Assembly (NCBI GenBank): GCA_001004885.1
Contig: LCRX01000003.1
Coordinates: forward strand, 1,650 to 65,649
Source: Candidatus Magasanikbacteria bacterium GW2011_GWA2_56_11
Lineage (GTDB): Bacteria; Patescibacteriota; Patescibacteriia; Magasanikbacterales; UBA922
DNA: 64,000 nucleotides
Direction of reading: 5' to 3'
The notes below the pieces were generated by a model. That model searched no databases. It was not told the DNA's origin and worked only from the letters and a program-made list of their open reading frames with translations. A program made the position numbers and the translations under genes. Shown piece after piece: positions 41,406 to 64,000 of this stretch. Numbering within the stretch: the first letter of the stretch is position 1; each line of letters starts with the position of its first letter.

Positions 41406-41416
41406 GTCGCCAATTT

Positions 41417-43768: not shown

Positions 43769-43830
43769 TACCTCTCTCGTCCGTTTTGCTTCGAGAGTCA
43801 ATTTGGTATTAGGTTTTTATTATTTTCAGT

Positions 43831-45321: not shown

Positions 45322-45334
45322 ACCCTTGCCCATT

Positions 45335-45547
45335 ATGAAAACCGCCATCAAAGTTACAGGCATGCACTGCGCCTCGTGCAAAGTTCTTATCGAAGATATC
45401 GCCGGAGATATCCCCGGCGTGCAGGCGGCCGAAATCGACTTCCGCACCGGGGAGGGCGTTATCGAGCACGATGAATCATTCGACCTAAACGCCCTCAAGC
45501 GCGAGGTCGCAGGCGCCGGCGATTATTCAATCGAGACAACCAAGTAA
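45335..45547 (+). CDS. copZ: Copper chaperone CopZ-like HMA-domain protein
   Basis: MKTAIKVTGMHCASCKVLIEDIAGDIPGVQAAEID. Confidence 0.75.
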   Translation: MKTAIKVTGMHCASCKVLIEDIAGDIPGVQAAEIDFRTGEGVIEHDESFDLNALKREVAGAGDYSIETTK

Positions 45548-45734
45548 CTCGCTCCCCCTATGTCGCCCATCAATCTTCACGATCCGGATTTCGACTCCCC
45601 CAGCCATACCATGGGTAAAAGCCCGGCCGGTCTTCCGGCCCGGTTCCTGTTCGCCGCCGGCATCGTGGCTGGTTTTCTCTCGGTGTGCACGGTTGGTTTC
45701 TTCATCCTTTTGGCAGTACTGATCAAAAACTAAT

Positions 45735-46373: not shown

Positions 46374-46433
46374 AAAATGCGGGGGGCGCGGTCAGTTGCT
46401 CCCGGGCGAATAATCAGCTATCATCCAGATACT

Positions 46434-47750: not shown

Positions 47751-47811
47751 ACTCTTCCCAAGCGCGTGCTATAGTAAGCCAATTATTTTAGCAGTTTATC
47801 CGTCTCAACTT

Positions 47812-48468
47812 ATGAACCCAAACACCCGTCGTATTCTTATCTGGTCAGCTTTTACACTGGGACTAGTCGGGCTGCTGTTCGGCTTGGCGAAGCTTGGCAC
47901 CTCAGGCCAGGGAGCCAGCCCGGCGGCCGGTCTTGCGCTAGCTGTCCCGGTGACGGACGAGGATTGGAGCAAAGGAAACAAGGACGCCCCGGTAACCGTC
48001 GTCGAATACAGCGACTTCCAGTGTCCGGCCTGCCAACTGTACTATAAAATAGTCAAACAAATCAGCGAGGATATGCCGGACAAGGTGCGTTTTGTTTACC
48101 GCCACTATCCGTTGCGCCAGACCCACCCCAATGCCGAAGCAGCGTCCCTGGCCTCTGAGGCGGCAGGCATGCAGGGCAAATTTTGGCAGCTGCACGACGC
48201 CCTGTTTGAAACCCAGGACTCCTGGGCCAGGGATACCAACCCCGCTATTTATTTCGAAGACCTCGCCAGCTCCCTAGGACTGGACGTGAAAAAATTCAAA
48301 GAAGATATGAAAAGCCCGGCTGCTAAAAATAAAGTTGACCGCGACTACCGTTCCGGCGCCGGTATCGAGGGCACGCCCACTTTCTTTGTTAATGGCCGGC
48401 TGGTAAACTCTCCCCGCTCGTATGAGGAATTTAAGACTCTTGTTGAACAGGCGGCACAACCTTCCTAA
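47812..48468 (+). CDS. DsbA-family thiol:disulfide oxidoreductase
   Basis: Signal/TM segment plus VVEYSDFQCPACQ (CPAC active site). Confidence 0.75.
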   Translation: MNPNTRRILIWSAFTLGLVGLLFGLAKLGTSGQGASPAAGLALAVPVTDEDWSKGNKDAPVTVVEYSDFQCPACQLYYKIVKQISEDMPDKVRFVYRHYPLRQTHPNAEAASLASEAAGMQGKFWQLHDALFETQDSWARDTNPAIYFEDLASSLGLDVKKFKEDMKSPAAKNKVDRDYRSGAGIEGTPTFFVNGRLVNSPRSYEEFKTLVEQAAQPS

Positions 48469-48895
48469 GTGGCTCAGCGCGAGCTTCTTAGCCGTCGCGC
48501 TCATCGGCTTTGCCGACGCCACTTACCTGGCTGTCAACCACTACCGCGGCAATGTCCCGCCGTGCGCCATCCTTAGGGGCTGCGAAACCGTAACTAGCAG
48601 CTCCTATTCCATGCTGTTCTCGACTGTGCCGGTTGCCCTTCTGGGCGCGTTGTATTATCTTACTCTCCTGGTCCTGATTGTGGGCTATCTTGACACCAAG
48701 CGCCTAGGCCTGGCTCTGGCCGCTTTCTTTCTCACCCCCCTTGGCTTTATAGCCTCTCTTTATTTTTTCCACCTGCAACTGAACGTCATCGGGGCTTGGT
48801 GCGTCTATTGCCTGGGCTCTATCGCCAGTTCGACTCTCTTGTTCGCGCTCGGAGGCGCCGGAGCGAAATACAAAAAATTGCTCCTAGACAACTGA
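48422..48895 (+). CDS. Vitamin K epoxide reductase (VKOR)-family protein; start uncertain, overlaps the dsbA gene
   Basis: 4-TM protein with a Cys pair (PPCAILRGC) and a CxxC motif (CVYC). Confidence 0.65.
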   Translation: MRNLRLLLNRRHNLPKWLSASFLAVALIGFADATYLAVNHYRGNVPPCAILRGCETVTSSSYSMLFSTVPVALLGALYYLTLLVLIVGYLDTKRLGLALAAFFLTPLGFIASLYFFHLQLNVIGAWCVYCLGSIASSTLLFALGGAGAKYKKLLLDN

Positions 48896-48935
48896 CCGCG
48901 GCCGGCCAGTAAAAATTATTTTTCTTACCCGATAT

Positions 48936-49880
48936 ATGCCCGTCCTCATTTCCGGTTCCCTCGCCTACGACTACATCATGGATTTCCCGGATTCTTTCAA
49001 GAACCACATTCTCCCGGACCACATCCATATTCTGAACGTCTGCTTCGTCGTAGACCAGCTGAGCAAAAATCTTGGCGGCTGCGCGGGCAACATCGCCTAT
49101 ACCATGAAACTCCTGGGCGGCGAACCGCTGGTGATAGCGCCTCTCGGCAGCGACGCCGGCGAGTATCTGGCGCATTTTCAGAAACACGGCATTAACACCA
49201 AATACGTGCCGCTAACGCCGGACAAGCTGTCCTCCTCGGCGCACATTACCACGGACAAGGACGACAACCAAATAATCGCTTACTACAACGGCGCCGGAGA
49301 CGCGGCGGCGGATCTTAGCGTATCGCAGGTAACAGAACCGATCGACCTGGCTATCATCGCGCCCACCAAAAAGGACGCCATGATCCGCCACGCCAAAGAA
49401 TGCTACGAGAAAAAAATCCCTTTTGTCTTTGACCCCAGCCATCAGCTGACAGCCTTTGATCCGCGCGAGCTTAGTATGCTTATCGGCCAGGCGAAATTTT
49501 ACATCGCCAATGACTACGAAATGAAACTGACGGAAGAAAAAACCGGCTGGGACACGCTAGAGATGCTCAATCACGTGGAAGTGATCATCATGACACTCGG
49601 CGAACGCGGTTCGGTCGTTATTACCGGCAATGAACGCTTCGAGATCCCGTCGTGCACAGCGCTCTCGGTAGACGATCCGACCGGCGCCGGCGACGCCTAC
49701 CGGGCCGGTTTTTTTACGGCCTACTCCCAGGGTTTTGACCTCGAGACCTGCGGCCAGGTCGGGAGCCTGGCCGCCACCTATGCGGTCGAACACTACGGCA
49801 CGCAAAACCACTTCTTTACCCGCGCCAGCTTTGAGGAGCGTTTCCAGACAGCCTTCCGGAAAACCCTGGCCCTGGCCTAA
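48936..49880 (+). CDS. PfkB-family carbohydrate/nucleoside kinase (ribokinase-like)
   Basis: LGGCAGN and DPTGAGDAYRAGF motifs. Confidence 0.75.
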   Translation: MPVLISGSLAYDYIMDFPDSFKNHILPDHIHILNVCFVVDQLSKNLGGCAGNIAYTMKLLGGEPLVIAPLGSDAGEYLAHFQKHGINTKYVPLTPDKLSSSAHITTDKDDNQIIAYYNGAGDAAADLSVSQVTEPIDLAIIAPTKKDAMIRHAKECYEKKIPFVFDPSHQLTAFDPRELSMLIGQAKFYIANDYEMKLTEEKTGWDTLEMLNHVEVIIMTLGERGSVVITGNERFEIPSCTALSVDDPTGAGDAYRAGFFTAYSQGFDLETCGQVGSLAATYAVEHYGTQNHFFTRASFEERFQTAFRKTLALA

Positions 49881-49943
49881 CCCATTGTCGGGACAAAATA
49901 AAGCAGCTATACTACCGCTGCTTTATTTTTCTTCGCGTTTTTT

Positions 49944-50900
49944 ATGTGGCTTGCCCTCTTTCTCATTCTCATTGGCCTGGGCATATTGATTGCCGGCGGC
50001 GACGCGCTTGTACGCGGCGCTGCCTCGCTGGCCAAACGCCTGGGAGTGGCGCCGATAGTTATCGGGCTCACCATTGTCGCTTTCGGCACTTCGGCGCCGG
50101 AGCTTATCGTAAATATCTTCTCCGCCATCAGGGGAACCACCGACATTGCCATCGGCAACGTGGTCGGCAGCAATATCGCCAATATCCTCCTCATCCTAGG
50201 TGTGAGCGCTGTAATTTTCCCGCTGCGCGTCGGCAAAGGCACAGTGTGGAAAGAAATTCCGCTGGCGCTTCTCTCGGCTATCATGGTGTTAGTCTTGGCC
50301 AATGACGCCCGTCTGGACGGGCTAGATACATCGGCCCTTACCCGCACCGACGGACTGGCGCTAATCGCTTTTTTTGCTATCTTCATCTATTATACTTTCG
50401 GTGTTGCCAAGGCCGAAAACGGCGGCGACAGCCAGGTAAAAACATACAGCCACGCGTTTTCCCTGCTGTTTATTGTCGGCGGACTGGTTGCTTTATTTTT
50501 CGGAGGCAAACTTCTGGTCGATAATGCCATTATCCTCGCGCGGATGGCCGGCCTGTCCGAACTCCTTATCGGCACCACCATAGTCGCGGTCGGCACCTCG
50601 CTGCCGGAACTTGTTACCTCGGTAATAGCAGCCCTAAAAAGGCACGACGACATCGCTATCGGCAATGTGGTCGGCTCGAACATTTTTAACGTGTTCTGGA
50701 TTCTCGGCCTGACCTCCATCATGAAACCGCTGCCGGTTTTGCCCAGCATGAACGCGGACATCTTGGTCAACGTGGTCGCCACGCTGCTCCTGTTCAGCTT
50801 TATGTTCATTCACACCAAACACCGCCTGAACCGCTGGCAGGGCGTTATGTTTATAGGTTTGTATATCGCTTACACCACGGCCGTGATTATACGCGGTTAG
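49944..50900 (+). CDS. CaCA-family Na+/Ca2+ antiporter (YrbG-like)
   Basis: Two alpha-repeats: GTSAPEL...GNVVGSNIANILLILG and GTSLPEL...GNVVGSNIFNVFWILG. Confidence 0.8.
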   Translation: MWLALFLILIGLGILIAGGDALVRGAASLAKRLGVAPIVIGLTIVAFGTSAPELIVNIFSAIRGTTDIAIGNVVGSNIANILLILGVSAVIFPLRVGKGTVWKEIPLALLSAIMVLVLANDARLDGLDTSALTRTDGLALIAFFAIFIYYTFGVAKAENGGDSQVKTYSHAFSLLFIVGGLVALFFGGKLLVDNAIILARMAGLSELLIGTTIVAVGTSLPELVTSVIAALKRHDDIAIGNVVGSNIFNVFWILGLTSIMKPLPVLPSMNADILVNVVATLLLFSFMFIHTKHRLNRWQGVMFIGLYIAYTTAVIIRG

Positions 50901-50903
50901 GCT

Positions 50904-51473
50904 ATGCCAGGCTCTTTCAAAGATTATCGGTACACAATCGCTTTTGGCGTTTCTATCCTGCTGGCAGCGGCCGCCTACGCCTGGGGCTGGTTTGACAAGG
51001 TCGCCGATATACCCGGTTCATTCGGCTACGTTACCAGCTTTATTGCCGGTCTCATGTTCTCCTCCACATTCACCGCCGCGCCGGCGGCGTTTTTGTTTGT
51101 CGAATTTGGCAGCCATCTATCGCCGCTCTCTGTGGCCCTTGTGGGCGGGCTCGGCGCCATGGCCGGCGATCTCATTATGTACCGGTTTATCAAAAACAAT
51201 TTATTGAAAGAATTAAAAACTTTGGGCGCTCTGCTATTTTCGACCCGCAGCCGCGTCTACCTCGAAAGAATCTCCCGGCATCGGGTTTTTCTTTGGACCA
51301 CGCCGTTTATCGCGAGTCTGCTCATCGCCTCGCCTCTGCCGGATGAACTCGGCGTGGCGCTGTTCAGCCTCGTAAATTTTCAGCCCAAGTACCTCTCCCT
51401 AATTACTTTCCTGCTTAATGCCGCCGGCATATTTGCGCTGGTATTTTTCGGCCACACGCTCAGCCGGCCATAA
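50904..51473 (+). CDS. Hypothetical membrane protein
   Basis: ORF and hydrophobicity only. Confidence 0.4.
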   Translation: MPGSFKDYRYTIAFGVSILLAAAAYAWGWFDKVADIPGSFGYVTSFIAGLMFSSTFTAAPAAFLFVEFGSHLSPLSVALVGGLGAMAGDLIMYRFIKNNLLKELKTLGALLFSTRSRVYLERISRHRVFLWTTPFIASLLIASPLPDELGVALFSLVNFQPKYLSLITFLLNAAGIFALVFFGHTLSRP

Positions 51474-51569
51474 ACGCAAAACCACCCGCCTCCGGCCCCA
51501 ATATTCCGAACACTCGGAACATAGGGCTGAATCGGGTGGTTCTACGAAGGGGCGGGTATGAAGGGGGGG

Positions 51570-51758
51570 TCAAGCGGCCATCTCACCCGGCGTGGGCGAG
51601 TCGTCCGTCATCTCCCCGGACCAACCGGGCGGAACATCAAGCCCGATGTGGTCCAAGAGTACTACCACGGGGTAGTACGGCAGGAGTGCGAGCCATACAG
51701 CCCGCACGACCAGGGCCTGGGCGGCCTTTTTCATCACCCTCAAAACCCACATTGTCAT
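51570..51758 (-). CDS. Candidate small protein (about 62 aa) with a GGAGG RBS, in a GC-rich intergenic region
   Basis: The minus strand reads cGGAGGtgctccATGacaATGtgg. Several ORFs overlap here, so this call is tentative. Confidence 0.2.
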   Translation of the reverse strand: MTMWVLRVMKKAAQALVVRAVWLALLPYYPVVVLLDHIGLDVPPGWSGEMTDDSPTPGEMAA

Positions 51759-51839
51759 GGAGCACCTCCGTATTGAGCTTACCACCTTTTCCAGAATATA
51801 CAAGATGATTGGGTCCGGCGGCGACGGAACCGCGCACGC

Positions 51840-51868
51840 TTGCCAGCCGGCGCCAAATCGGCTATAAT
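51840..51868 (+). promoter_or_regulatory. Sigma70 promoter of ahcY (TTGCCA-17 bp-TATAAT)
   Basis: TTGCCAgccggcgccaaatcggcTATAAT, 29 nt upstream of the ahcY ATG. Confidence 0.55.
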
Positions 51869-51896
51869 CAGACTGTTTTTCTATTTTTATTAACTT

Positions 51897-53336
51897 ATGC
51901 CCGACTATAAAATAGCCGACATCAAACTTGCCGACTGGGGGCGCAAGGAGATGGACATCGCCGAACAGGAGATGCCAGGTCTCATGTCTATCCGAAAAAA
52001 ATACGCCCAGAGCAAACCCCTAAAAGGCGTCAAAATCACCGGAGCGCTCCACATGACCATCCAGACCGCGGTCTTGATCGAAACCCTCCGCGCGCTGGGC
52101 GCCAAAGTCCGCTGGGCGAGCTGCAACATTTTCTCGACCCAGGACCACGCCGCGGCCGCGATTGCCAAGGCCGGGATACCGGTCTTTGCCTGGAAAGGCG
52201 AAACGCTCGAGGAGTACTGGTGGTGCACCGAACAGGCCCTAAACTTCGGCCACGGAACCGGTCCGGATCTGATTGTAGACGACGGCGGCGACGCGACGCT
52301 TATGATCCACCAGGGCGCGGAAGTAGAGGCCAAACCGGCGCTGCTTGGCAAGAGCTACAAGCAAGAAGGCCCGGACGCGCAGGAACTGATGAAACTCCTT
52401 AAAAAGGAATACGCCAAAAACCCGACGCGCTGGACCAAGGTCGCCAAAAATGTCCGCGGCGTCTCCGAAGAGACGACGACCGGCGTCCACCGACTCTACC
52501 AGATGATGAAAACCGGCCGGCTTCTTTTCCCGGCCGTGAACGTCAACGACTCGGTAACCAAAAGCAAGTTCGACAATATCTACGGCTGCCGTCACTCGAT
52601 AGTGGACGGCCTAAACCGCGCCATGGACGTCATGCTCGGAGCCAAAACCGCGGTCGTGTGCGGCTTTGGCGAGGTGGGCAAGGGCTGCGCCCAGGCTCTG
52701 CGGGGCCAAGGAGCCCGCGTGATCGTAACCGAAATCGATCCCATCTGCGCGCTCCAGGCGGCGATGGAAGGTTACGAGGTAACGACACTTGAGGACACGC
52801 TCGGACGGGCCGACATATATGTTACCACTACCGGCAACAAGGACGTGATTACGCTTGAACACCTGAAACAGATGAAAGACCAGGCGATCGTGTGCAATAT
52901 CGGGCACTTCGACAACGAAATCCAGGTCGAGAAGCTTAACCGGGCCAAGGGAGTGAAACGGGTCAACATCAAGCCGCAGGTAGACAAATATATCTTTCCG
53001 GCCGCCTCCGTCAGTGCTTCGGGGAGCCGAAGCAAAAAAGAAATCTACCTTCTCGCCGAAGGCCGGCTGGTGAACCTGGGTTGCGCCACCGGACACCCGA
53101 GCTTTGTCATGAGCAACTCATTCAGCAACCAGGTACTGGCCCAAATCGACTTGTGGGCCAACCGGGACCGCTATGAGATCGGGGTCTACCGCTTGCCCAA
53201 ACACCTGGATGAAGAGGTAGCCCGGCTCCACCTGGAAAAGATCGGGGTCAAGCTCACGAAACTTACAAAAGATCAGGCGAATTATCTCGGGGTCGAGCAA
53301 AACGGACCGTACAAGCCGGAGCACTACCGCTATTAG
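51897..53336 (+). CDS. ahcY: Adenosylhomocysteinase
   Basis: N-terminus [27 protein letters not shown] and the NAD-binding [10 protein letters not shown]. Confidence 0.9.
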
Positions 53337-53353
53337 ACGGCTTACCCATCGTC

Positions 53354-53380
53354 AAAGCCCCGACCTGGTCGGGGCTTTTG
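53354..53380 (+). terminator. Rho-independent terminator after ahcY (aaagccccgacc-tggtc-ggggctttt)
   Basis: A hairpin followed by T4. Confidence 0.6.
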
Positions 53381-53451
53381 CATGCCGGGTGGAGGGGAAT
53401 TGAAAAAATATCTAAAATAAGGTTAAATAAGGGATATTAATTACTCGTTTT

Positions 53452-54144
53452 ATGCCTATAAAAAGCTACCGCTATCTGGACATCATTACCATCGCCTTTG
53501 TAACCGTTCTCTTGCTCTCGAACATCATCGCCGTCAAAATAGTCTCGCTCGGGGCGCTCGCTCTTCCGGCGGCTGTTTTTCTCTTTCCGCTCTCCTATAT
53601 TTTCGGCGATATCCTGACCGAGGTCTACGGCTACGCCAAGGCGCGCCGGGTGATCTGGACCGGGTTGGCGGCCAATGTTTTTATGGCGCTCGTCTTTATG
53701 GCAGCCAGCGCCTTGCCGCCCGCCGCGCCCTGGCCGCTCCAGGAGGCGTTTGCGAGCATCCTCGGCCAGACGCCGCGGATAGTGGCCGCGAGCGTTATCG
53801 CCTATTGGGCCGGCGAATTTCTGAACTCGTACGTACTGGCCAAAATTAAAGTAAAAATGCAGGGCCGCCGGCTGTGGATTCGCACTATTGGTTCAACCGT
53901 CGTCGGCGAGGCGATAGATACCGCCCTGTTTATTTCCCTCGCTTTCGGCGGCGTTTTGCCCGGCAGTCTGGTTATTACGATTATGATCTCGAGTTATCTC
54001 GCCAAGGTAGCGCTCGAAATTATACTCACGCCGGCGACTTACGCCGTGGTACGGACTCTCAAGCGCGCCGAAGGCGAAGACTACTATGACACGGCGACTA
54101 ACTTTAACCCTTTTCACCTGCGTGATCGGTCGGCCGCATCCTGA
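53452..54144 (+). CDS. yhhQ: Queuosine-precursor transporter YhhQ/QueT-like (DUF165/VUT family)
   Basis: 6-TM protein with FPLSYIFGDILTEVYGY. Confidence 0.7.
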   Translation: MPIKSYRYLDIITIAFVTVLLLSNIIAVKIVSLGALALPAAVFLFPLSYIFGDILTEVYGYAKARRVIWTGLAANVFMALVFMAASALPPAAPWPLQEAFASILGQTPRIVAASVIAYWAGEFLNSYVLAKIKVKMQGRRLWIRTIGSTVVGEAIDTALFISLAFGGVLPGSLVITIMISSYLAKVALEIILTPATYAVVRTLKRAEGEDYYDTATNFNPFHLRDRSAAS

Positions 54145-54149
54145 TAATT

Positions 54150-55379
54150 ATGTTCCTGGACGCCTCCATTCTGATTCTTCTGATTGCTGCCTCAGCTTTT
54201 TTTTCGGCGTCGGAGATAGCCTTTGTCTCGCTGTCGAACGCCAAAGTGGATGACATGGTACGCCGCTCTGTCCCGCGATCCCGGCTTATCCAGAAACTTA
54301 AAAGCGAGCCGCGCCGGCTGCTTATTACCGTCCTTATCGGCAATAACCTCGTCAACATCGGCGCTTCTTCGCTCGCGACCGTGCTTTTTGCCCGGCTTTT
54401 CCAATCGACGGCCGTGGGTATAACGACCGGCATCATGACGCTCGCTATCCTAATCTTCGGGGAGATTGTGCCCAAGGCCTACGCCACAAACCACAACAAA
54501 AAAATCGCCGCTCTGGCGGCGCCGATTCTGCGCGCGCTCGCCTGGATGTTTCATCCGCTGGTGGTGATATTCGGGTATCTTACGACCGCTCTCGCCGGCG
54601 CCCCCAAAGAGGAGAGCATCACCGAAAATGAAGTCCGCGCGCTGGTATTGGCCGGGAGCCGGCAAGGAACAATTGAAAAAGAGGAACAAGCCATTATCGA
54701 GCGCCTGTTCGCTTTCAACGACATTACCGCCGAAGACATCATGACCCCGCGCGTCAATGTGGCCTATATCGAGGACGCATCCACCATCGCCCAGGCGGCC
54801 GCCGTGATCGCCCGCAATCCGCACACCCGCTTCCCGGTGGTGCACGAAACCCCGGACGATATTATCGGCTTCGTGCACTCGCGCGACGTTCTTTTGGCGC
54901 TTAACCAGGACCGGGACGCCGATCCGGTAACCAAAATTGTCCGGCCGATCATCGCCATCCCCAAGCAAATGCGCCTCGACGACCTAATGCGCGAATTCCA
55001 AAAGAAAAAAACCCACCTGGCGGTCGTGCTCGACGAGTTCGGCGGCACCGAGGGCATTGCCACGCTTGAGGACGTTATCGAGGAGCTGGTCGGTGAAATC
55101 ACCGACGAGTACGACGTGGACAAGCATTTTATCCAACGGCTCGACAAGAACACCATCATGGTTTCAGGCGACACTCTTATCCGCGATATCAACCACTTCT
55201 TCAATATTGCCATCCCGGGTGATCCGCTCGACACCATCGCGGAAGTTCTGCTCGACAAACTGCAGGTCGTGCCCCGTCCGGGGATGTCGGTCTCCTTTAC
55301 CGAGGTTACTGCCGCCATACACGAAGTGCGGCGGCGGACTATCGGCCTGGTGAAAATAATCAAGTCCAGTTCGGTCTAA
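54150..55379 (+). CDS. HlyC/CorC-family transporter (CNNM/DUF21 TM domain, CBS pair, CorC_HlyC)
   Basis: The domain order and the transporter-associated C-terminal domain. Confidence 0.8.
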   Translation: MFLDASILILLIAASAFFSASEIAFVSLSNAKVDDMVRRSVPRSRLIQKLKSEPRRLLITVLIGNNLVNIGASSLATVLFARLFQSTAVGITTGIMTLAILIFGEIVPKAYATNHNKKIAALAAPILRALAWMFHPLVVIFGYLTTALAGAPKEESITENEVRALVLAGSRQGTIEKEEQAIIERLFAFNDITAEDIMTPRVNVAYIEDASTIAQAAAVIARNPHTRFPVVHETPDDIIGFVHSRDVLLALNQDRDADPVTKIVRPIIAIPKQMRLDDLMREFQKKKTHLAVVLDEFGGTEGIATLEDVIEELVGEITDEYDVDKHFIQRLDKNTIMVSGDTLIRDINHFFNIAIPGDPLDTIAEVLLDKLQVVPRPGMSVSFTEVTAAIHEVRRRTIGLVKIIKSSSV

Positions 55380-55408
55380 AGCAAACTTCGGCCGCCAGGG
55401 CCAGGTAA

Positions 55409-56212
55409 ATGTCGGTTATGTCCAGAAAATATCTGGTGGCCTACGCCAACGGCCTGTCTAGCGCTTTTCAATACCGGCTCAACCTGGGGCTGTTGTTTGT
55501 CAGCCATCTGGTTAGCCTTTCGGGCCTGGTCTATCTTTGGCTAGCCGTTTACGCCGCCGGCGAGAGCCTGCCCGGCTACTCTTTGCCGGAAATAATTACC
55601 TACTACCTGGTGCTCACGGCTCTGCGCATTACCATAGCCGACGGGATCGGAATGGGGTTCAAAGTATCCGAAGATATTCGGGAAGGCCTGATTACCCATT
55701 ACCTCTTGAAGCCTTTCAGCTATTCTCTGGAACAAGGTCTGCTGCTCGCCGCCCAGGCCAGCATCAACCTGGTCTTTGCCTTGCCCCCGTTCATTATTTT
55801 GGGATTATTCATAAACCGGTTTATCGAGCTGCCCGACCTTGGCGATATCGCGGCTTTTGCGCTGCTGACGTTAATCGGCCTGATCTTTTATTACCTAGTT
55901 TATTTATTATCAGCTTTCTCGTCTTTTTGGATCGAAAAAGGCAGCACCGCTATCTATGCCATGATTGTCGTCAGCCTGCTCCTCAGCGGTTCGCTCCTGC
56001 CTTTGGATCTTTTTCCGGACTGGTTCCAAACCGCGAGCCGGTACGCGCCCTTTCAGTATCTCATGTACGTGCCGATCCAGGGATTCTTAGGCCAGATCAC
56101 CGACTGGAGCCGGACGCTGGCGGTTGCCGCAGTCTGGATAGTCCTTTTGGCGGCGGCAGCCCGGACCGTCTGGCTCCGGGGCCTCAAAAAATACGAAGCT
56201 GCCGGCCGGTAA
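55409..56212 (+). CDS. ABC-2-type-permease-like 6-TM protein, paralog 1 (type A, ends ...KKYEAAGR)
   Basis: About 260 aa. It is homologous to the next five ORFs, with N-terminus ...AFQYRLNLGLLFVSHL and C-terminus W...LRGLKKYE. Confidence 0.6.
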   Translation: MSVMSRKYLVAYANGLSSAFQYRLNLGLLFVSHLVSLSGLVYLWLAVYAAGESLPGYSLPEIITYYLVLTALRITIADGIGMGFKVSEDIREGLITHYLLKPFSYSLEQGLLLAAQASINLVFALPPFIILGLFINRFIELPDLGDIAAFALLTLIGLIFYYLVYLLSAFSSFWIEKGSTAIYAMIVVSLLLSGSLLPLDLFPDWFQTASRYAPFQYLMYVPIQGFLGQITDWSRTLAVAAVWIVLLAAAARTVWLRGLKKYEAAGR

Positions 56213-56215
56213 ATT

Positions 56216-57001
56216 ATGAAATACTTTTCTCTCTATCTCGCGTTCTTCCGGGCGAACTTGATGAAAGACATGGCCTACCGGGGCAACTTTCTTTTAGGCT
56301 CCTTGACTACGGCCCTGGAGTCGCTCATGGTCTATTTCGGCGTGGCGGTTCTTTTCCGCCACGTTACGACCATCGCGCAGTGGACCTATGAAGAGATGCT
56401 CATTCTCCTCGGGGTCTACATGATCAGCAACAGCGCGGCCTGGCTGCTCTTCCGGGCGGGCGTGTCCGATCTGGACCGGACAATTAACCGGGGCGACCTC
56501 GATTGGTACCTGGTCAAGCCGATCGATGCCCAATTCCTCTCCACCGTTACCCGCATAGATATAGAAGACGCGGCGCGCTCGCTGGTCGGATTGGTGCTGG
56601 TCGGTTTGGGCCTCTATCGAGGCACGGCCGAGGTAAGTTTCTGGAGACTTTTAGCCTTTGTCATCACTTTTCTGGCCGGCCAGGCGATCCTCTATAGCAT
56701 CCAGCTCGCTCTCAAAACCGTCAGCTTCAAATCGCTCCAGGGCTGGGCCACCAACAGCATCGCTTTCCGCTTTCACGATCTGGCGCAATACCCGACGGAT
56801 ATTTACCGCGGCCTCATGCGCGTCGTCTACACGTTCGTTTTGCCGCTCGCCTTCATCGCCACCGTGCCGGCCAAGGCGCTGATCGGCGAGATCACCGCCG
56901 GACTTTTCGCCCTCTCGCTCCTCATCGCCGCGGCCGCTCTGGCCATCACCCGCCTGATCTGGAAACGGGCGCTGCGGACTTATACGAGCGCGTCGAGTTA
57001 G
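56216..57001 (+). CDS. ABC-2-type-permease-like protein, paralog 2 (type B, ends ...RTYTSASS)
   Basis: Starts 3 nt after paralog 1, and carries the B-type C-terminus YTSASS. Confidence 0.6.
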   Translation: MKYFSLYLAFFRANLMKDMAYRGNFLLGSLTTALESLMVYFGVAVLFRHVTTIAQWTYEEMLILLGVYMISNSAAWLLFRAGVSDLDRTINRGDLDWYLVKPIDAQFLSTVTRIDIEDAARSLVGLVLVGLGLYRGTAEVSFWRLLAFVITFLAGQAILYSIQLALKTVSFKSLQGWATNSIAFRFHDLAQYPTDIYRGLMRVVYTFVLPLAFIATVPAKALIGEITAGLFALSLLIAAAALAITRLIWKRALRTYTSASS

Positions 57002-57150
57002 AGCCCACTCCAAAAATAATTCGGAGCCGGTTTTGAGCGAAAAATGTCCGGGTTGAAGTAGGCATAATGGTATTATGGCGACGAAACCCCGGAAATTTTT
57101 CGCTCAAAACCGGCTCGAAAATGAGCCAGAATTATTTTTGGGAGTGGGCT
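57002..57150. repeat. About 150-bp imperfect inverted repeat (45-57-nt arms flanking a 48-nt centre with a nested palindrome cataat-ggt-attatg), filling the gap between permease pairs 1-2 and 3-4
   Basis: agcccactccaaaaataattcggagccggttttgagcgaaaaat ... atttttcgctcaaaaccggctc[gaaaatgagccag]aattatttttgggagtgggct. Confidence 0.6.
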
Positions 57151-57157
57151 AAATAGT

Positions 57158-57949
57158 ATGAAACACAGAATTTTATTCAAAAACTACCTCAGCCATTTTC
57201 TCGCCTACCGTGCCCGGGTCGGTATCTGGGCCGTAACCGACGTCGCCGAGTTTCTCGTCTTCCCGTTTATCTGGCTAGCTGTCATAACCGATAATATCGG
57301 CATCGAGGGGTACGGCCGCGCCGACATTATAACTTACTATTTGATAGCCGCCTTCGTCAGCCTGGTCTTCACCTCGCACCCGGCGCGCAAAGTCAAAGAA
57401 GACATTATGCAAGGCGGCCTCAACGCCTTCCTGGTCAAACCCCTGGGGCATTTTAGCCGGCACCTAATTGAACAGGCTACATACAAAATTTTATCCTTAG
57501 GCATAGGATTGGGCCTCATGCTGCCGCTCGTCTACTTTCTGCCGGAATATACGTATCTGCCGCTATCCTGGACAACTTGGGTGTTTTTTACTCTGTCCCT
57601 CTTGATTGCGTTTTTTGTCTCCCACCTGTTGGAGTATACCCTCGGCCTCGCCTCGTTCTGGTTCGGCGAAATCCGGGCGCTCCAACACGTGCTTGAGATT
57701 GCCTCGATTTTGTTCTCCGGCCGACTGGCGCCCCTGGTGTTCTTCCCTCCGCTGTTCGCGAGCCTAGCCGAATGGCTGCCGTTTGCCGCTTTGGCGTCTA
57801 TTCCGGCGGACATTTACCTTGAACGGATGACCGCTGCCGAGTCAGTCGGTCAGTTGTCCATCTCCGCCCTTTGGCTATTCGTCTTGTCTGGCCTGGCCAT
57901 CCTCGCATGGAAAAGGGGCTTACGGCGTTATGAAGGTATTGGCATATGA
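57158..57949 (+). CDS. ABC-2-type-permease-like protein, paralog 3 (type A, ends ...RRYEGIGI)
   Basis: Homology to paralogs 1 and 5. Confidence 0.6.
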   Translation: MKHRILFKNYLSHFLAYRARVGIWAVTDVAEFLVFPFIWLAVITDNIGIEGYGRADIITYYLIAAFVSLVFTSHPARKVKEDIMQGGLNAFLVKPLGHFSRHLIEQATYKILSLGIGLGLMLPLVYFLPEYTYLPLSWTTWVFFTLSLLIAFFVSHLLEYTLGLASFWFGEIRALQHVLEIASILFSGRLAPLVFFPPLFASLAEWLPFAALASIPADIYLERMTAAESVGQLSISALWLFVLSGLAILAWKRGLRRYEGIGI

Positions 57950-58734
57950 GAAAATACCTCTTTATTTATCTAACTCTTTTAAAAAATGCCTTCTCGTACG
58001 AAGCACAGTACCGGCGTGACACTTGGCTGCATTTAGCCTCCAACTTTCTCTACCTTGGCCTGCTGTCCGCCACAATTGAAGTGGTTTTCCGGCATACGCC
58101 GGAACTTAACGGCTGGAGCCGGGAAGAGACTTACCTTTTAATGCTTCTTTGGATTATCGCCGACGAACTGTTTACCATGGTCTCCAAGCATAATCTCTGG
58201 AACCTGCCTGGCCTCGTTACCGACGGCGCGCTGGACGCCTATCTCACCAAGCCGGCAAATACCTTGTTCCTAGTCAGCACCAAGATATTTCTCATGCGCG
58301 CGGGATACCGCCTATTTATACAAATTGGATTCCTCGTTTGGCTGGTCTGGAGTTTTGATTTTGCTCCTTCCCTCTGGCACGGTGCTATGGCCATAGTTTT
58401 AGTGATAGGCGGCGCCTTGGTTCACTATTCTTTCTCGCTCATTCTCAATACTCTCAGTTTCTGGTGGCTCAGAATAGACAACATCAACGATGCCTGGGAG
58501 AGTCTGAGCAATATGGGCCGCTACCCACTCGGAATTTTTCCCAAATTTGTTCGCGTGCTTTGCCTCACTTTCCTGCCGATCGCGTTCATCGGCTATATCC
58601 CGGCTGCCGCCATGACCGGCCGGGCCGGGTGGTGGCTGATACTGTATGCGTTTGCCTTTACCGCGCTCATATTCTATTTCGCGGTCAGTTTCTGGAAGTA
58701 CGCCCTCCGGCGCTACACCAGCGCCTCGAGCTAA
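57946..58734 (+). CDS. ABC-2-type-permease-like protein, paralog 4 (type B, ends ...RRYTSASS)
   Basis: ATGA overlap with paralog 3, and the B-type C-terminus. Confidence 0.6.
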   Translation: MRKYLFIYLTLLKNAFSYEAQYRRDTWLHLASNFLYLGLLSATIEVVFRHTPELNGWSREETYLLMLLWIIADELFTMVSKHNLWNLPGLVTDGALDAYLTKPANTLFLVSTKIFLMRAGYRLFIQIGFLVWLVWSFDFAPSLWHGAMAIVLVIGGALVHYSFSLILNTLSFWWLRIDNINDAWESLSNMGRYPLGIFPKFVRVLCLTFLPIAFIGYIPAAAMTGRAGWWLILYAFAFTALIFYFAVSFWKYALRRYTSASS

Positions 58735-58896
58735 AACTTACTTCAAAATGAGGTCATCTCTGGCAAGCGGGGCCGGCAGATTAAATTTTGAGCTCCGAGG
58801 ACGAGTGCGAGAGCGAAGCGGGTATCCCTCCGCAGGAGCTCGTCCCGCGAGCTCACCTACCGGCTCGATTTCGCGCTCGGGCGCCTGCGCCACCTG

Positions 58897-59598
58897 GTGG
58901 TGCTGCTTTTGCTCTATTACGTTTGGCGCACGCTCACCTCCGGCACAGGCGCTTTTGCCCTCTACAGCGATGAGCAGCTCATGACTTATCTATTCGGCGG
59001 CAATATTCTGCGCGCTTTTGTCTTCGGCACCCAGTCGCGCCGCGTCGCTCTCGAAATAAACGACGGCGCCTTCTCTCAGTACCTGGTTAAACCGGCCAAT
59101 CATTTCTGGTACTGTTACGCCCGCGAGCTGGCCGGAAGAATTTTGGCGACCATAAGCGCGGCAGTTGAAGCGGCCGGCATTTCTTTGCTGCTCGACATAA
59201 ATTTTTTCTGGCAAACAGATCCAGTTCTCTTGTCCTGGTTCGCGCTCGCCGTCCTCCTGGCTCACATTCTCTACTATTTCCTCAGCTACGGCATGAGCCT
59301 CATCGCTTTTTGGTCGCGCGAGGCCATGGGACCGCGTTTTTTGTTTGAGTGGCTCCTGGAGTTTGCCTCGGGCGCGTATTTCCCTTTGGATATACTCAAA
59401 GCCGCCTTTGCGCGCATCTTCATTTTTCTGCCTTTTGCCTATCTCATTTTCTCTCCTCTAAGCCTGTACTTGGGCGGCAGCGGACCACCGGGCTGGATTG
59501 TCGCCGCCTGGCAGCTCCTCTGGATAGCTATCGCTGCCCTGTCGGTATTTTTCTTGTGGCGCCGGGGACTCCGGCGCTACTCCGGGGAGGGAATTTAG
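58897..59598 (+). CDS. ABC-2-type-permease-like protein, paralog 5 (type A, ends ...RRYSGEGI); N-terminus apparently disrupted
   Basis: The homologous N-terminal residues (RVSLRRSSRELTYRLDFALGRLRHL) are encoded in-frame upstream but without an ATG, and a stop lies at 58789. The nearest ATG (58748) is in another frame. This may be a pseudogene, a sequence error, or a GTG/CTG start. Confidence 0.45.
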   Translation: MVLLLLYYVWRTLTSGTGAFALYSDEQLMTYLFGGNILRAFVFGTQSRRVALEINDGAFSQYLVKPANHFWYCYARELAGRILATISAAVEAAGISLLLDINFFWQTDPVLLSWFALAVLLAHILYYFLSYGMSLIAFWSREAMGPRFLFEWLLEFASGAYFPLDILKAAFARIFIFLPFAYLIFSPLSLYLGGSGPPGWIVAAWQLLWIAIAALSVFFLWRRGLRRYSGEGI

Positions 59599-59599
59599 T

Positions 59600-60382
59600 A
59601 TGCGCTACGCCCGCGTCTGGAAACAACTGACCGTGTGTTCATTCTCCACCTGGTCGTCCAACCGTCTGGACGCCGTTACCTATTGGCTGGGCAAACTTAT
59701 CCGCTTCGGCTTTTTTTGGCTGTTCGTCGCCTCGGTCTTTGAATTCACGCCGGCTTTTGCCGGCTACGGAAAATACGAGGTCCTGCTTTTCTTTTTGACC
59801 TTCAATCTGGTGGACGTGGTTACCCAGGCGTTTTTCCGCGGCATTTACCTGTTCAGCGACGATATCAACAAAGGCAACTTCGACTTTGTGCTCACCAAGC
59901 CGGTAAACCCGCTGTTCTATTCTCTGGCTCGCCTGACCGACCTGCTGGATTTTATTTTTCTTATCCCCCTCGTCGGCTTTCTCGCCTACGTAATCGCCAA
60001 GCTCGGGCTCGACCTCACTCTGGCCTCTTACCTGCTTTATCTGGCATTCGTCGGCGTCGGCATCATTTTGGCGCTCGCCATACATATTCTCTCGGCCGCG
60101 GCCACTATGTGGACCATGGAGAGCGATCACATTATCTGGCTCTACCGCGAAACCATGACCGTCGGCCGTTTCCCGCCGGAGGTTCTATCGCCCGCGCTGC
60201 AATTTGTCTTTACCTATCTTATGCCGGTTATTCTCATCGTGGCCTATCCGGCGAAAATCATACTGGGTCTGATCGGCCCGGGAGATATTGCCCGCCTCGG
60301 CGCGGTGACGGTCATATTCACGACCGTGGCTCTCGGGCTCTGGCGGGTGAGCCTGCGGCACTACGCGAGCGCTTCGAGCTGA
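59600..60382 (+). CDS. ABC-2-type-permease-like protein, paralog 6 (type B, ends ...RHYASASS)
   Basis: Starts 1 nt after paralog 5, and carries the B-type C-terminus. Confidence 0.6.
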   Translation: MRYARVWKQLTVCSFSTWSSNRLDAVTYWLGKLIRFGFFWLFVASVFEFTPAFAGYGKYEVLLFFLTFNLVDVVTQAFFRGIYLFSDDINKGNFDFVLTKPVNPLFYSLARLTDLLDFIFLIPLVGFLAYVIAKLGLDLTLASYLLYLAFVGVGIILALAIHILSAAATMWTMESDHIIWLYRETMTVGRFPPEVLSPALQFVFTYLMPVILIVAYPAKIILGLIGPGDIARLGAVTVIFTTVALGLWRVSLRHYASASS

Positions 60383-60418
60383 ACAAAAAAACGACGCCGG
60401 TCGGCTCCTCTGAGCTTT

Positions 60419-61313
60419 TTAGTGGGCCTTGTTTATCCATACCTCATTTTTCAATTCCTCTTCTATTTTATAACCCTGGCAATGGCCTAGAATACCCAGG
60501 TAAGATTGTACGGTCTGGTCCAGCCGGTAATCATCGCCAATGCCCCGGTTAAACTCATCTGTCTTCCGGCGCACCTTGGCGAACATCCGGTGTTTGGTTT
60601 TGGCGCGGATTACCCGGTAGCGCGGCAAAAGAACATCCCCGAGCCAGTCTAAAATCATCGGCGTAGCGAAAATAATAATGTTCCCGTAAATGATGTTTGA
60701 CGAAATAATCGAGCTCGGAAAGGTAGACATTGGCGAAAATCTGACTCGTCAAATTGCCGATTGGCATCCCCTTTCCCGACATCCCGGGCGTAGAAAAACT
60801 TCGTATCACTTTTTCTACAAGCCACATAACTTCGGTGTCCCCTAGTTTATTTATAAGCAACTGCAGCAAAATCTCATGGTCAACCGACGCAAAGAATTTT
60901 TTAATGTCCATCTTGAGAGACCACACCGTTTGGTTATGATTCTTACTGGCTTTCCTTAATGCCCTATCTACCGCGCCAACCGCCACATGAACCCCTTTGC
61001 CCCTCTGACACGAATACGAATGATGAATAAACGTCGGCTGGAGTATTGGTTCCAAAAACCGGAACAGAAGGTGATGCACAATACGATCCCGTACCGTTGC
61101 CTTGTTAATGATCCGAAATTTGGGGTCATAAATGTGGAAGGTCTCATACCCTTGATGTTGGTATGTTTTTGTGCTAAGCTCGTCCTGTAATTGAAAGAGA
61201 TTATCCTCTAAATATCTCTCAAAGAGGAGGACATCGGCTTTATTCTGTTTACCTTTTCTAAATTCGTACCAGGCATCGAGTATATTTTCGAGCCTAATCA
61301 GTTTTGAGTACAT
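60419..61313 (-). CDS. Diversity-generating retroelement (DGR) reverse transcriptase; the reading frame is interrupted (frameshift plus an apparent ~40-aa deletion between the YADD motif and the GxDFLGY-like motif)
   Basis: MYSKLIRLENILDAWYEFRKGKQNKADVLLFERYLEDNLFQLQDELSTKTYQHQGYETFHIYDPKFRIINKATVRDRIVHHLL...SYSCQRGKGVHVA...MPIGNLTSQIFANVYLSELD...YFRYADDF runs in one frame (61313-60651). The C-terminal ...PMILDWLGDVLLPRYRVIRAKTKHRMFAKVRRKTDEF...QSYLGILGHCQGYKI is in another frame (to 60419). The pattern matches DGR RTs such as Bordetella phage Brt. Confidence 0.8.
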
Positions 61314-61346
61314 AGTTTTTATGATCACCAATACCACCAAGGAAAG

Positions 61347-61356
61347 CCCCCCCCCC
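61347..61356. repeat. C10 (G10 on the other strand) homopolymer tract in the 83-bp divergent RT/avd intergenic region
   Basis: ggaaagCCCCCCCCCCtcagc. Confidence 0.8.
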
Positions 61357-61396
61357 TCAGCAATTTTTACGAACAGGTTCTTCTCAGGTAGATGAA

Positions 61397-61726
61397 GTGC
61401 CAATCTTAAAGAAAACAATTGATTTGTATAAAACGTACTATGTATACGCGCAGCTCTTCCCGAAGAAAGATAAGTATACACTCGGTGCAACGTGTGAGCG
61501 TTACCTAATTTCGGTTATTGAACTATTACTTGAAGCAACCTACCTGCCCAAAGAAACGAAACGGGCTAGGCTTATGCTTGCCAACAGTAAATTTGAAGTC
61601 CTGAAAGTATTTATACGACTTCTCAAAGAGCTGAACGTTATTGACCAGAAAAAATATATCATCCTCCAAACCATGATCCAGGATATTGGGAGGATGTTTG
61701 GCGGGTGGATGAGATCGCTCACCTAA
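61397..61726 (+). CDS. avd: DGR accessory variability determinant (Avd; four-helix-bundle protein)
   Basis: A 109-aa basic protein with FPKKDKYTLGATCERYLISVIELLLEA...IGRMFGGWMRS, matching the Avd/TIGR02436 pattern (compare BPP-1 bAvd ...VGRILGSWIARV). Confidence 0.7.
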   Translation: MPILKKTIDLYKTYYVYAQLFPKKDKYTLGATCERYLISVIELLLEATYLPKETKRARLMLANSKFEVLKVFIRLLKELNVIDQKKYIILQTMIQDIGRMFGGWMRSLT

Positions 61727-61741
61727 ATGACCGAATACAGC

Positions 61742-61772
61742 GAAGCCTCGACGTATGTGTCGAGGCTTCTTT
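61742..61772 (+). terminator. Perfect 11-bp-stem hairpin (gaagcctcgac-gtatgt-gtcgaggcttc) between avd and the TR; a weak avd terminator and/or the 3' flank of the TR on the other strand
   Basis: A perfect inverted repeat, with only 3 T residues after it on the + strand. Confidence 0.4.
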
Positions 61773-61787
61773 AGGCTATAGGCACTT

Positions 61788-61901
61788 CCAGAGCACGACC
61801 ACCCCGCCGGAGTAGTTCTCGTTCGCGTCGAGGTTCCTGTTGTCGAAGTCGAGCTTCGCGTCGTTCGGGTTGAAGTACAGCGAGTTCTCGGGGTCCTGCC
61901 A
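61788..61901 (-). repeat. DGR template repeat (TR), read on the minus strand
   Basis: 114 bp identical to 62322-62435 except at about 20 positions. Every one of those is an adenine in the minus-strand TR (T on +). The TR carries multiple AAC codons (NSLYFNPNDAKLDFDNRNLDANENYSGGVVVLW). Confidence 0.85.
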
Positions 61902-62187
61902 AAATGCGCTCTTTTCCGTCCGTAATCACCGAAGACAGAGCTTCTCCACTACAAGCCGCTCCATCTCCTGAATTTTATGCGGTTCCAGGATGAACCAAAG
62001 AAAAAAACACGCAGTGCCTATATCTTTCGTATACCCTCCGGCGATGTGAGAAAAGCAACCATTCACCTCCAGACTCCGATACGTTTCCAAAGATATATAA
62101 TTTCGGCGACGATAATCCTTATTCAGAACTATCGTGCATGAGCCTACTTTCGGTTGAGAAGTATACCAGTTTTGTATAAAAACACGA

Positions 62188-62236
62188 AGGCGGGCCATGG
62201 CTCGAAGCGTCGAAACGCTGCGCCGATGGCCCGCCT
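62188..62236 (-). terminator. GC-rich hairpin (ggcgggccat...atggcccgcc with an inner palindrome), followed on the minus strand by a T-run; terminator of the DGR target gene and/or a DGR cruciform element
   Basis: aggcgggccatggctcgaagcgtcgaaacgctgcgccgatggcccgcct. The minus strand continues tcgtgtttttatac. Confidence 0.5.
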
Positions 62237-62312
62237 GAAATGGTGGGTGTCCAAGGGACCAAGTGACCAAGGGTCCTTGATCCAAGGGACAAGTGAGACA
62301 AGAGAACGAGGG

Positions 62313-63242
62313 CTAGGACTGCCAGAGCACGACCACCCCGCCGGAGCAGAGCCCGTGCGCGACGAGGTTCCCGATGCCGAAGCCGAGCTTCGCGTCGCCC
62401 GGGCAGAAGAACAGCGAGCGCCCGGGGCCCCGCCACAGGTTCGCGGGGCAGTCGAGGGCGGGCGTCATGCCGTCGCGGCCGAGGACCTCGGAGTAGCCGA
62501 TGAAGCCCATGGCCGGCTCGAAGGCACCGGTCAGGAGGACGTCGTTCGGGAACTGCTGGACCATCGTGCGGTCCGCGAGAATGCCGAAGCCCTGGAGGCA
62601 GGTGGGGAAGTAGACACCGACCGTCGGGCCCTGCCGCATCGCCTCGATGAGGCACTCGTGCCGGGTGCCGGAGACGACCGTGACCTGCCCCGCGAGCGTG
62701 CCCCGGCGCCAGTTCTCGAAGGTGCGCTCGGGGAACGCCTCGGCGTAGGCCAGGCCGACGGCCGCGAGGAACATGTCCTCGAGGACGGCGCCGTAGTCCA
62801 CGACCTCGCAGTGCGGGAAGCAGACCGGGAGGTAGGTGCCCTGGAGGAGGTTCGCGATCTGCCGGTCGCTCTTCACCCGCTCGATGACCGCGAGGCCCCG
62901 CTCACGGAACTGGTCGGCCGTGACGAAGGTCTGTCCGGGCATGTGCCGCGTGAACCGGGCGTGCACCGCCGCGTAGTCGACCGTGGGCTGCGCGAGGTGG
63001 TAGCCCCGGTCGGCGTCGACGATCTCCTCGGTCATGCCGGGCAGCGGGATCCAGCGGCCGTTCCGGTCGACGAGCTTGACCGTGGTGTCCTGGACGACGA
63101 TCTTGAGCTCTCCGGAGAGCACGCCCTGGAGGATCGTCTCCACCTGGGACTCATCGCCGGTGAGACCGCGGGCCACCTTGCGGATGATCGCGGACTTCTG
63201 ACCGTCGCTGAGACCGGACACCACCTCTTCAAACGTCTTCAT
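62313..63242 (-). CDS. DGR variable (target) protein; the C-terminal domain carries the VR (C-type-lectin/FGE-like fold inferred)
   Basis: A 309-aa ORF with about 65% GC. The VR falls in its last ~40 codons, and an AAGGAG RBS lies 7 nt upstream of the ATG. Confidence 0.75.
   Translation of the reverse strand: MKTFEEVVSGLSDGQKSAIIRKVARGLTGDESQVETILQGVLSGELKIVVQDTTVKLVDRNGRWIPLPGMTEEIVDADRGYHLAQPTVDYAAVHARFTRHMPGQTFVTADQFRERGLAVIERVKSDRQIANLLQGTYLPVCFPHCEVVDYGAVLEDMFLAAVGLAYAEAFPERTFENWRRGTLAGQVTVVSGTRHECLIEAMRQGPTVGVYFPTCLQGFGILADRTMVQQFPNDVLLTGAFEPAMGFIGYSEVLGRDGMTPALDCPANLWRGPGRSLFFCPGDAKLGFGIGNLVAHGLCSGGVVVLWQS
62322..62435 (-). repeat. DGR variable repeat (VR) within the 3' end of the target gene
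   Basis: See the TR entry. The VR encodes ...RSLFFCPGDAKLGFGIGNLVAHGLCSGGVVVLWQS, and the stop codon lies 7 nt after the VR. Confidence 0.85.
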
Positions 63243-63317
63243 GGGACTCCTTTCAGGCTTGTTATCACCCGAAGAGCTGCCCTTACCCGGGGCCCAGGGC
63301 CTCCTCTATCCCTCGAT

Positions 63318-63366
63318 GAGGAAAGCTTTCGCCTTATTACTAGCTAGTACGGCTAAAGCTTTCCTC
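63318..63366 (-). promoter_or_regulatory. 19-bp-stem inverted repeat (gatgaggaaagctttcgcc...ggctaaagctttcctcatc, loop containing ctagctag) in the 5' leader of the DGR target gene
   Basis: Located between the predicted promoter and the target-gene start. Confidence 0.4.
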
Positions 63367-63414
63367 ATCTTTTTCTCTTGTTTTAGCCTAATTTGTGCAA
63401 AGAACGAATATAAA

Positions 63415-63443
63415 ACTATAGCATATTTTAGCGATTTTGTCAA
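63415..63443 (-). promoter_or_regulatory. Sigma70 promoter for the DGR target gene (TTGACA-17 bp-TATAGT), giving a leader of about 165 nt
   Basis: The minus strand reads TTGACAaaatcgctaaaatatgcTATAGT. Confidence 0.5.
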
Positions 63444-63551
63444 GGGTATAAATTCAGAAACAGTACCACCCCACGGTTGGTACCACTCCAATTCCGGCGC
63501 TACCGTTAGCGAAAAATCCAAAAATTTACCGCCTTCAGATAGCAAATCAGC

Positions 63552-63582
63552 CCGGCTTTGGCCGGGCTGATCGCATAGAAAT
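63552..63582 (-). terminator. Hairpin terminator (atcagcccggc-tttg-gccgggctgat) following the upstream minus-strand gene
   Basis: A perfect 11-bp stem, followed on the minus strand by a T-rich stretch (tttgctat). Confidence 0.55.
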
Positions 63583-63601
63583 CTAATTTAACGCGCCAGA
63601 A

Positions 63602-64000
63602 CTATTCAATTCGCACCTCATCCAAGTAGAACGTCCCCTCGTTCGCCCCGGTATTACCCTGGATGGCAAACCCGGTAATCGTACCCCCGGCCGCGCCGAT
63701 ATCCGCGAGCGGAATAGAGACCGTCTGCCACTGACCGGCCTTCAATACGCCGTCCGGCAGATACGGGGCCAGCTTGTAGTGATTCGGCCCGGCGCCGGTT
63801 GCGTCGAACGGCACAATCTGGAGCTGCTGCCCGGCGGGCACGGTGCCGTAGAGGGTCATGGTAAGCGTCGTCCGGCCGGTGGTGTCGAGCCCTGGATGAT
63901 GGAGGAAATAACCGGCCCAGGGGCTTAGAAACTCGACCGCCAGAGCTTGCGTGCCCTGGTACACCGGGGTAGTCGTCGCGGACGCGTTTATCTCCCACGA
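63602..64000 (-). CDS. C-terminal part of a protein continuing beyond the window (beta-rich, possibly a surface or binding domain)
   Basis: The ORF is open to the window edge and ends ...GNTGANEGTFYLDEVRIE. Confidence 0.4.
   Translation of the reverse strand, partial: SWEINASATTTPVYQGTQALAVEFLSPWAGYFLHHPGLDTTGRTTLTMTLYGTVPAGQQLQIVPFDATGAGPNHYKLAPYLPDGVLKAGQWQTVSIPLADIGAAGGTITGFAIQGNTGANEGTFYLDEVRIE

Follow-up and report, generated by a model that had tools for sequence, protein, structure and literature searches.

A Broken Reverse Transcriptase Frame in the DGR of a Magasanikbacteria Draft Genome Is Most Likely an Assembly Join Artifact

Organization of the DGR Locus

The window, the whole 64,000-nt stretch of DNA analyzed here, comes from Candidatus Magasanikbacteria GW2011_GWA2_56_11 and carries a DGR. 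The reverse transcriptase (RT) gene runs on the minus strand from an ATG at 61313 to a stop at 60419, as judged from the ORF list and the sequence. The accessory gene avd (61397–61726) is on the plus strand, opposite to RT, TR, and target. Its product is identical to KKW42855.1, matches the Pfam family bAvd (4.1e-18), and scores 85.6 bits against the NCBIfam model NF033474 (DivGenRetAVD), for which the equivalog cut-off is 80. The TR (61784–61901, minus strand) is 118 nt long, contains 29 adenines, and has the same sequence in all loci. The VR (62318–62435, minus strand) lies at the 3′ end of the target gene (62313–63242, minus strand), inside the ORF, with 5 nt separating it from the stop-inclusive end. 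The target is a protein of 309 aa, identical to KKW42856.1, that carries the VR at its C terminus; no family match for it was found in Pfam, NCBIfam, or PDB.

Across the 118 nt of the TR/VR pair, all of the mismatches (21/21) are located at TR adenines. A sister VR allele is carried by five other assemblies (L001–L005; allele 1, the window's VR being allele 2) and has 12 mismatches to the TR, again exclusively at TR adenines. The two alleles differ from one another at 14 sites, every one a TR adenine, which gives 12 amino-acid differences within the last 50 residues of the target. Gaps aside, 13.5 kb of flanking sequence differs between the alleles only at 57094 and at base 60637 in the RT site. 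The window's allele recurs in five other contigs (L006, L007, L008, L027, and L028). With two VR alleles in near-identical genomes, this aquifer CPR population preserves a natural trace of recent mutagenic homing.

The locus possesses an RT of the DGR clade, adenine-only TR/VR differences, a 3′ VR in a coding target, an Avd, and evidence of homing. The feature missing from this record is an uninterrupted RT frame, which is found in the five sister-allele assemblies. Judged from its sequence, the DGR is complete apart from the RT break in the record and recently active. The initial annotation had proposed that the precise correspondence of TR and VR argues against long-term decay, and the placement of the 21 mismatches shows that it was correct.

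The avd gene sits between TR and RT on the opposite strand, so a transcript from TR to RT would carry antisense avd. The avd and RT genes are divergent, with a spacer of 83 nt between them. A run of ten C residues (61347–61356; G10 on the RT strand) lies 34–43 nt upstream of the RT start and is constant in length in all loci compared.

The RT Reading Frame Is Interrupted by a 128-nt Gap

The RT is in frame from the ATG through ...HYYFRYADDF, with Phe221 encoded by 60653–60651. This 5′ part (codons 1–221; 60651–61313, minus strand) covers the N-terminal extension, fingers, palm, YADD, and Phe221 itself. Beyond Phe221 the frame is out of register (RLARGCSFAALPGNPRQ...) and ends at a stop at 60555. 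The C-terminal part, DWLGDVLLPRYRVIRAKTKHRMF...GHCQGYKIEEELKNEVWINKAH, is found in the +1 frame relative to the 5′ part (60649–60419, minus strand). It corresponds to codons 265–340 plus the stop, and contains motif 7 (D-W-L-G) and the thumb; the conserved region reads DWLGDVLLPRYRV...KAH. In Pfam, the N-terminal piece matches RVT_1 over model positions 8–156 of 205 only, and the C-terminal piece has no match.

Searching proteins with a conceptual fusion of the two RT parts retrieved a 340-aa protein (P0001) that is identical to the RT on both sides of the break. P0001 is encoded on five contigs (L001–L005) with a matching gene neighborhood, and all five genes are intact. Comparison of the window to these contigs by blastn showed 100% identity along the 950 nt upstream of a clean gap of 128 nt (L001 10664–10791), and 351/352 matching positions downstream of it. 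In the window this gap is reduced to the junction 60651|60650 on the minus strand, whose boundaries are without repeat and whose position is ambiguous by a single T. The absent sequence comprises codons 222–263 (42 residues) and two bases of codon 264. The 5′ part is 100% identical to P0001 residues 1–221 and to the DNA of L001–L008, and the 3′ part is 100% identical to a further contig, L012; tblastn maps P0001 residues 253–340 to window 60685–60422. The initial annotation had described a frame break right after YADD, a conserved C-terminal region in another frame, and the absence of about 40 residues. All three observations are confirmed, the break being at 60651/60650 after YADDF, the second frame being +1, and the loss relative to the P0001 contigs amounting to 42 residues.

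The Absent Segment Is Conserved in the RT Family

All full-length RT homologues aligned (114/114) have 45–46 residues between YADD and LG. Within the segment, His251 is present in 113 of the 114, and Lys254 and Gly263 are invariant. When compared to the bRT structure (8ub7), the segment aligns with residues ∼218–258, right after the catalytic Asp215/Asp216 (active-site numbering from bioRxiv 10.1101/2023.10.23.563531) and ahead of G-I-N-F-L-G-Y. The alignments predict that an RT without this segment would be dead.

One reading of the locus is that the truncated RT is functional as it stands, either as a natural variant, by programmed frameshifting, or with a second RT acting in trans. Consistent with this, TR and VR form a pristine pair, the DGR has been recently active, and a +1 shift near the junction would fuse both frames. 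We consider this reading to have almost no chance of being right. The proposal in the initial annotation that some DGR RTs naturally lack the segment is rejected by its retention in every full-length homologue. A programmed frameshift fares no better, as the fused product would still miss the 42 conserved residues that directly follow the catalytic D215/D216. Within the 64-kb window, neither another RT nor another VR-like copy of the TR was found. The suggestion that the RT is serviced in trans is therefore left without support, nor is a second RT needed, as the intact gene in other assemblies is a simpler account of the recent activity.

Assemblies of the Same Genotype across the Break

Three assemblies encode the window's exact target protein, VR allele included: L006 (ANAN16-1_SAMN03202995 scaffold_466, 97.8 kb), L007 (SRR1658344 k127_60072), and L008 (ERZ27254745 k141_2250349). 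Leaving aside the sites discussed here, alignments of the window to scaffold_466 and to MEGAHIT and JGI contigs show 100.000% identity across more than 45 kb (stretches 10129–32435, 40070–44153, 44153–58841, 58842–60650, and 60651–64000). Because L006–L008, L027, and L028 have the same VR allele and are 100% identical elsewhere, they are assemblies of the window's genotype.

Contig ends are described relative to point b (window 60650), where AGACTGG begins on the RT strand. L007 contains all 128 nt, in frame, and ends at b+6, 7 nt beyond the right boundary of the gap. L008 contains the absent segment except for its last 4 nt and ends at b−5. In L006, 117/128 nt are present; a separate gap of 11 nt is located just before b and has the same right boundary (AGACTGGCTCGGGGATG). 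L027 retains 116/128 nt and switches at b−12 to 158 nt of unrelated sequence. L012, a MEGAHIT contig of 1908 nt, has its end at window 60650, to the base; it overlaps L007 by 7 nt and is separated from L008 by a gap of 4 nt. No assembly of the window's VR allele crosses b cleanly, and an intact allele-2 RT is therefore reconstructed only by the 7-nt overlap of L007 and L012. The five allele-1 assemblies (L001–L005) pass b normally, with an intact RT and identical flanks.

A two-path de Bruijn bubble, as expected of a mixed population, was considered as the cause of the contig breaks and rejected: the ends overlap by 7 nt or leave a gap of 4 nt, not an overlap of k−1. Since graph branches would overlap by k−1, the ends of L007, L008, and L012 are coverage dead ends.

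Trouble at b recurs in at least two BioSamples (SAMN03202995 and SAMN03202999). This is more recurrence than would be expected from low coverage at random, a hint of some local factor. A structural hotspot in the allele-2 RT, an insertion or nested deletions with AGACTGG as the right boundary, could be untraversable by short-read assemblers and be rendered differently by each. Contigs from the two or more BioSamples break less than ∼20 nt apart, the 128-nt and 11-nt gaps have a common right boundary, and the end of L007 and the start of L012 are the same 7 nt (AGACTGG), as in a target-site duplication. Furthermore, L027 (ANAN16-1_SAMN03202999-S001 scaffold_113804) has an intact RT as far as ...PGKIVYRKF, joined at b−12 to 158 nt (L027 1–158) that are AT rich (36% GC) and contain an open frame.

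We nevertheless judge such a hotspot to be very unlikely. Contigs entering an insertion should hold up to k−1 nt of it, whereas L007, L008, and L012 hold none, and five allele-1 assemblies cross the site normally. The 52-aa frame of the L027 tail has no homologue in the protein database, and its DNA is unmatched in the window, the fetched loci, and the viral contigs. ANAN16-1 scaffolds have junk tips elsewhere: at window 59717, inside a permease gene, scaffold_466 (L033 19865–20001) carries 94 nt, N10, and 33 nt of foreign sequence, and here all other assemblies agree with the window. This foreign insert indicates that the re-assemblies carry errors of their own, and the L027 tail is probably a junk or chimeric tip of the same type.

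Two Further Private Gaps in the Contig

The contig has two more gaps that are private to the window. At 58841/58842 (plus strand) the window lacks 90 nt, and with them the start codon of an ABC-2 permease, which is 233 aa in the window (KKW42852.1) versus 263 aa; the lost bases also include the right arm of an inverted repeat of 43 bp. At 44153/44154 (plus strand) 126 nt are absent from inside an HMA/DsbD (also HMA/DsbD/cupredoxin) gene, whose product is 496 aa in the window (KKW42834.1) versus 538 aa elsewhere. Both segments are present in scaffold_466, and the gaps also stand out against the sister-allele contigs (at 44153, against one sister-allele scaffold). L012 starts 9 nt before the 58841/58842 junction, and the MEGAHIT contig L035 starts 16 nt inside the segment absent at 44153. 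The chance of all three private gaps coinciding with independent contig ends is ∼3e-8. In plus orientation the three gaps have the same form: the left piece reaches the break, and ∼100–130 nt are lost from the start of the right piece. The gap at 44153 is probably a join artifact of the same kind as that in the RT.

Repeat-mediated deletion or collapse was rejected for the three gaps. The boundaries share 1 nt (RT and 44153) or 0 nt (58841), and the absent segments are not tandem copies.

In the other assemblies, a perfect 43-bp inverted repeat with a loop of ∼40 nt separates two ABC-2 permease genes as a long hairpin, of which the window retains the left arm alone (58754–58796). Scaffold_328 has an N gap at the 58841/58842 site.

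A Single-Base Difference near the Junction

The one mismatch downstream of the gap is at 60637, a T to G change on the RT (minus) strand that is 14 nt from the junction and converts Tyr269 to Asp in the conserved LGY. The change is common to three assemblies (the window, L006, and L012) and is also 14 nt from the end of L012. L007 has two changes to G that are private to it and lie close to its end. This pattern at contig ends suggests that the T to G change is a read-tail error at very low depth. As it is shared by three assemblies, it may also be a true variant. Tyr269 is Tyr in 109 of the 114 homologues and Asp in none; if true, Tyr269Asp would alter a nearly invariant residue.

Origin of the Break

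The break in the RT gene is real in the record but most likely not biological. An assembly error is the most likely cause because the missing bases are found when this population is assembled by others. Two further points favor this reading: the junction falls on the end of an independent contig, and two other private gaps of like type occur in the window's contig. We thus regard a join artifact as the probable origin of the frame break, a judgement reached with good confidence from comparisons among contigs. The initial annotation had listed a collapsed or mis-assembled region as one of its options, and this is the option now favored, as the absent segment is found in frame in same-genotype assemblies. 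It had named read-level evidence for ∼120 extra nucleotides and a corrected frame as the observation that would overturn a genuine break, and at the contig level such evidence was found.

In the proposed sequence of events, a local coverage gap would fall inside the RT gene of the GenBank contig UY92_C0003, and two contig ends would have been joined directly across it. In the process the right-hand piece (plus orientation) would have lost about 128 nt from its start, simulating a deletion and a frameshift. The underlying gene of the population is most likely that of a normal DGR RT of 340 aa.

The peculiar products of the record occur only in GenBank GW2011_GWA2_56_11, under locus tags UY92_C0003G00xx of a 75,145-nt contig (KKW42834.1 and KKW42852.1); the neighboring permease equals KKW42853.1 to the residue. 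For the RT itself (UY92_C0003G0060), truncated products of 252, 260, 311, and 103 aa were looked up, and none is on record. The genome name implies a GC content of 56% and a coverage of ∼11×, a naming convention (GC, coverage) that is visible in a table of PMC4736985. The bins of that study were built from 150-nt reads with IDBA-UD, and scaffolding errors were re-assembled with Velvet (PMC4736985). At 11×, Lander-Waterman statistics put the expected number of coverage gaps at 0.4–6 per 64 kb, according to the overlap that is required. The junction in the RT contains no Ns and has a 1-nt overlap. Two of the gaps, at 126 and 128 nt, differ by just 1 from k = 127, a hint, but no more than a hint, of an overlap-trimming step applied across the gap.

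A different origin would be a real and very recent 128-nt deletion, possibly together with Tyr269Asp, in a subpopulation sampled by GWA2, with the other assemblies having caught an intact variant. The junction is clean, without Ns, and the distinct VR means that a separate lineage exists. Given flanks that match the intact allele at 100%, a deletion of this kind would have to be very recent, and mixed variants could likewise disturb assembly at this position. We think a real deletion unlikely, although less so than a hotspot. L007 and L008 run through the left boundary, and their 7-nt overlap or 4-nt gap with L012 differs from the k−1 of a bubble. L006 has a different gap (11 nt) at the shared right boundary. 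It is implausible that 64 kb of a genome that is 100% identical elsewhere would have suffered three independent deletions, each damaging a gene. The junction sequence had no exact match in the public genome and metagenome contig collections scanned, and neither had a sequence common to both alleles; viral contigs gave no matches.

A recently inactivated RT, another option of the initial annotation, is disfavored by the coincidence of the junction with an independent contig end and by the two additional private gaps. A pseudogene would be expected to show its lesion in every assembly of the same genotype, but L006, L007, L008, and L027 hold 116–128 of the 128 nt. It would also show further decay, but the flanks are 100% identical bar one base and the TR/VR mismatches are adenine only. 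Were the deletion real, it would mark a subpopulation of the aquifer Magasanikbacterium in which the DGR had been shut off, on a clonal background, after a burst of VR change. It would then offer a natural snapshot of the shutdown of a hypermutation system. An assembly join, as preferred here, is in accord with both the missing sequence being present in independent assemblies and the junctions being located at independent contig ends.

Relation to Known Systems

Among solved structures, P0001 is closest to bRT of the Bordetella phage BPP-1 DGR (8ub7–8ube; for 8ub7, E = 4.5e-41, with residues 5–314 aligned to 12–303). As in that system, the Avd passes the NCBIfam equivalog cut-off for DGR Avd proteins, TR and VR differ only at adenines, and the target ORF carries the VR at its 3′ end. 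The arrangement is different: here avd is placed between TR and RT and read from the other strand, whereas the phage order is avd-TR-RT on one strand. Unlike the phage system, the target has no detectable family, the host is a CPR bacterium, and the RT is interrupted in the record.

DGRs are abundant in CPR genomes from this aquifer. The nearest homologues of the RT (45%–60% identity) come from sources named Magasanikbacteria, Falkowbacteria, Woykebacteria, and Saccharibacteria/Patescibacteria group, in keeping with the origin of the window in a Magasanikbacteria genome. Only the broken frame sets the element apart from other DGRs of the CPR (Patescibacteria), and this difference is probably artifactual. 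The element is evidently an ordinary, complete, and active CPR DGR, and the break matters little as biology.

The break resembles known mis-assemblies of draft MAGs in that private gaps of 90–128 nt lie at independent contig ends, without boundary repeats, in a genome of ∼11× coverage that went through automated re-assembly of scaffolding errors. It differs in that the usual errors carry Ns or sit at repeats, whereas the joins seen here are seamless and mimic true deletions. The public draft contig contains at least three such seamless gaps, and they result in truncated records (the RT, KKW42834.1, and KKW42852.1). Joins of this type could mislead surveys of low-coverage MAGs in which degenerate DGRs or RT pseudogenes are counted.

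Other Features of the Region

The region 60400–63200 is a GC mosaic, in which the RT and avd have ∼40%–46% GC, the target has 68%–71%, and the flanking genome has ∼55%. Six tandem paralogous ABC2_membrane_6 permease genes (55409–60382) adjoin the DGR. At the other end of the window, a 67-nt stretch at 12084–12150, located just downstream of rpoC, is 98.5% identical to L001 2966–3032, which lies beside an ABC-transporter ATPase gene at a place past the window's right end. Scaffold L004 switches from one of these places to the other, and the stretch at 12084–12150 is a short dispersed repeat that misleads scaffolding.
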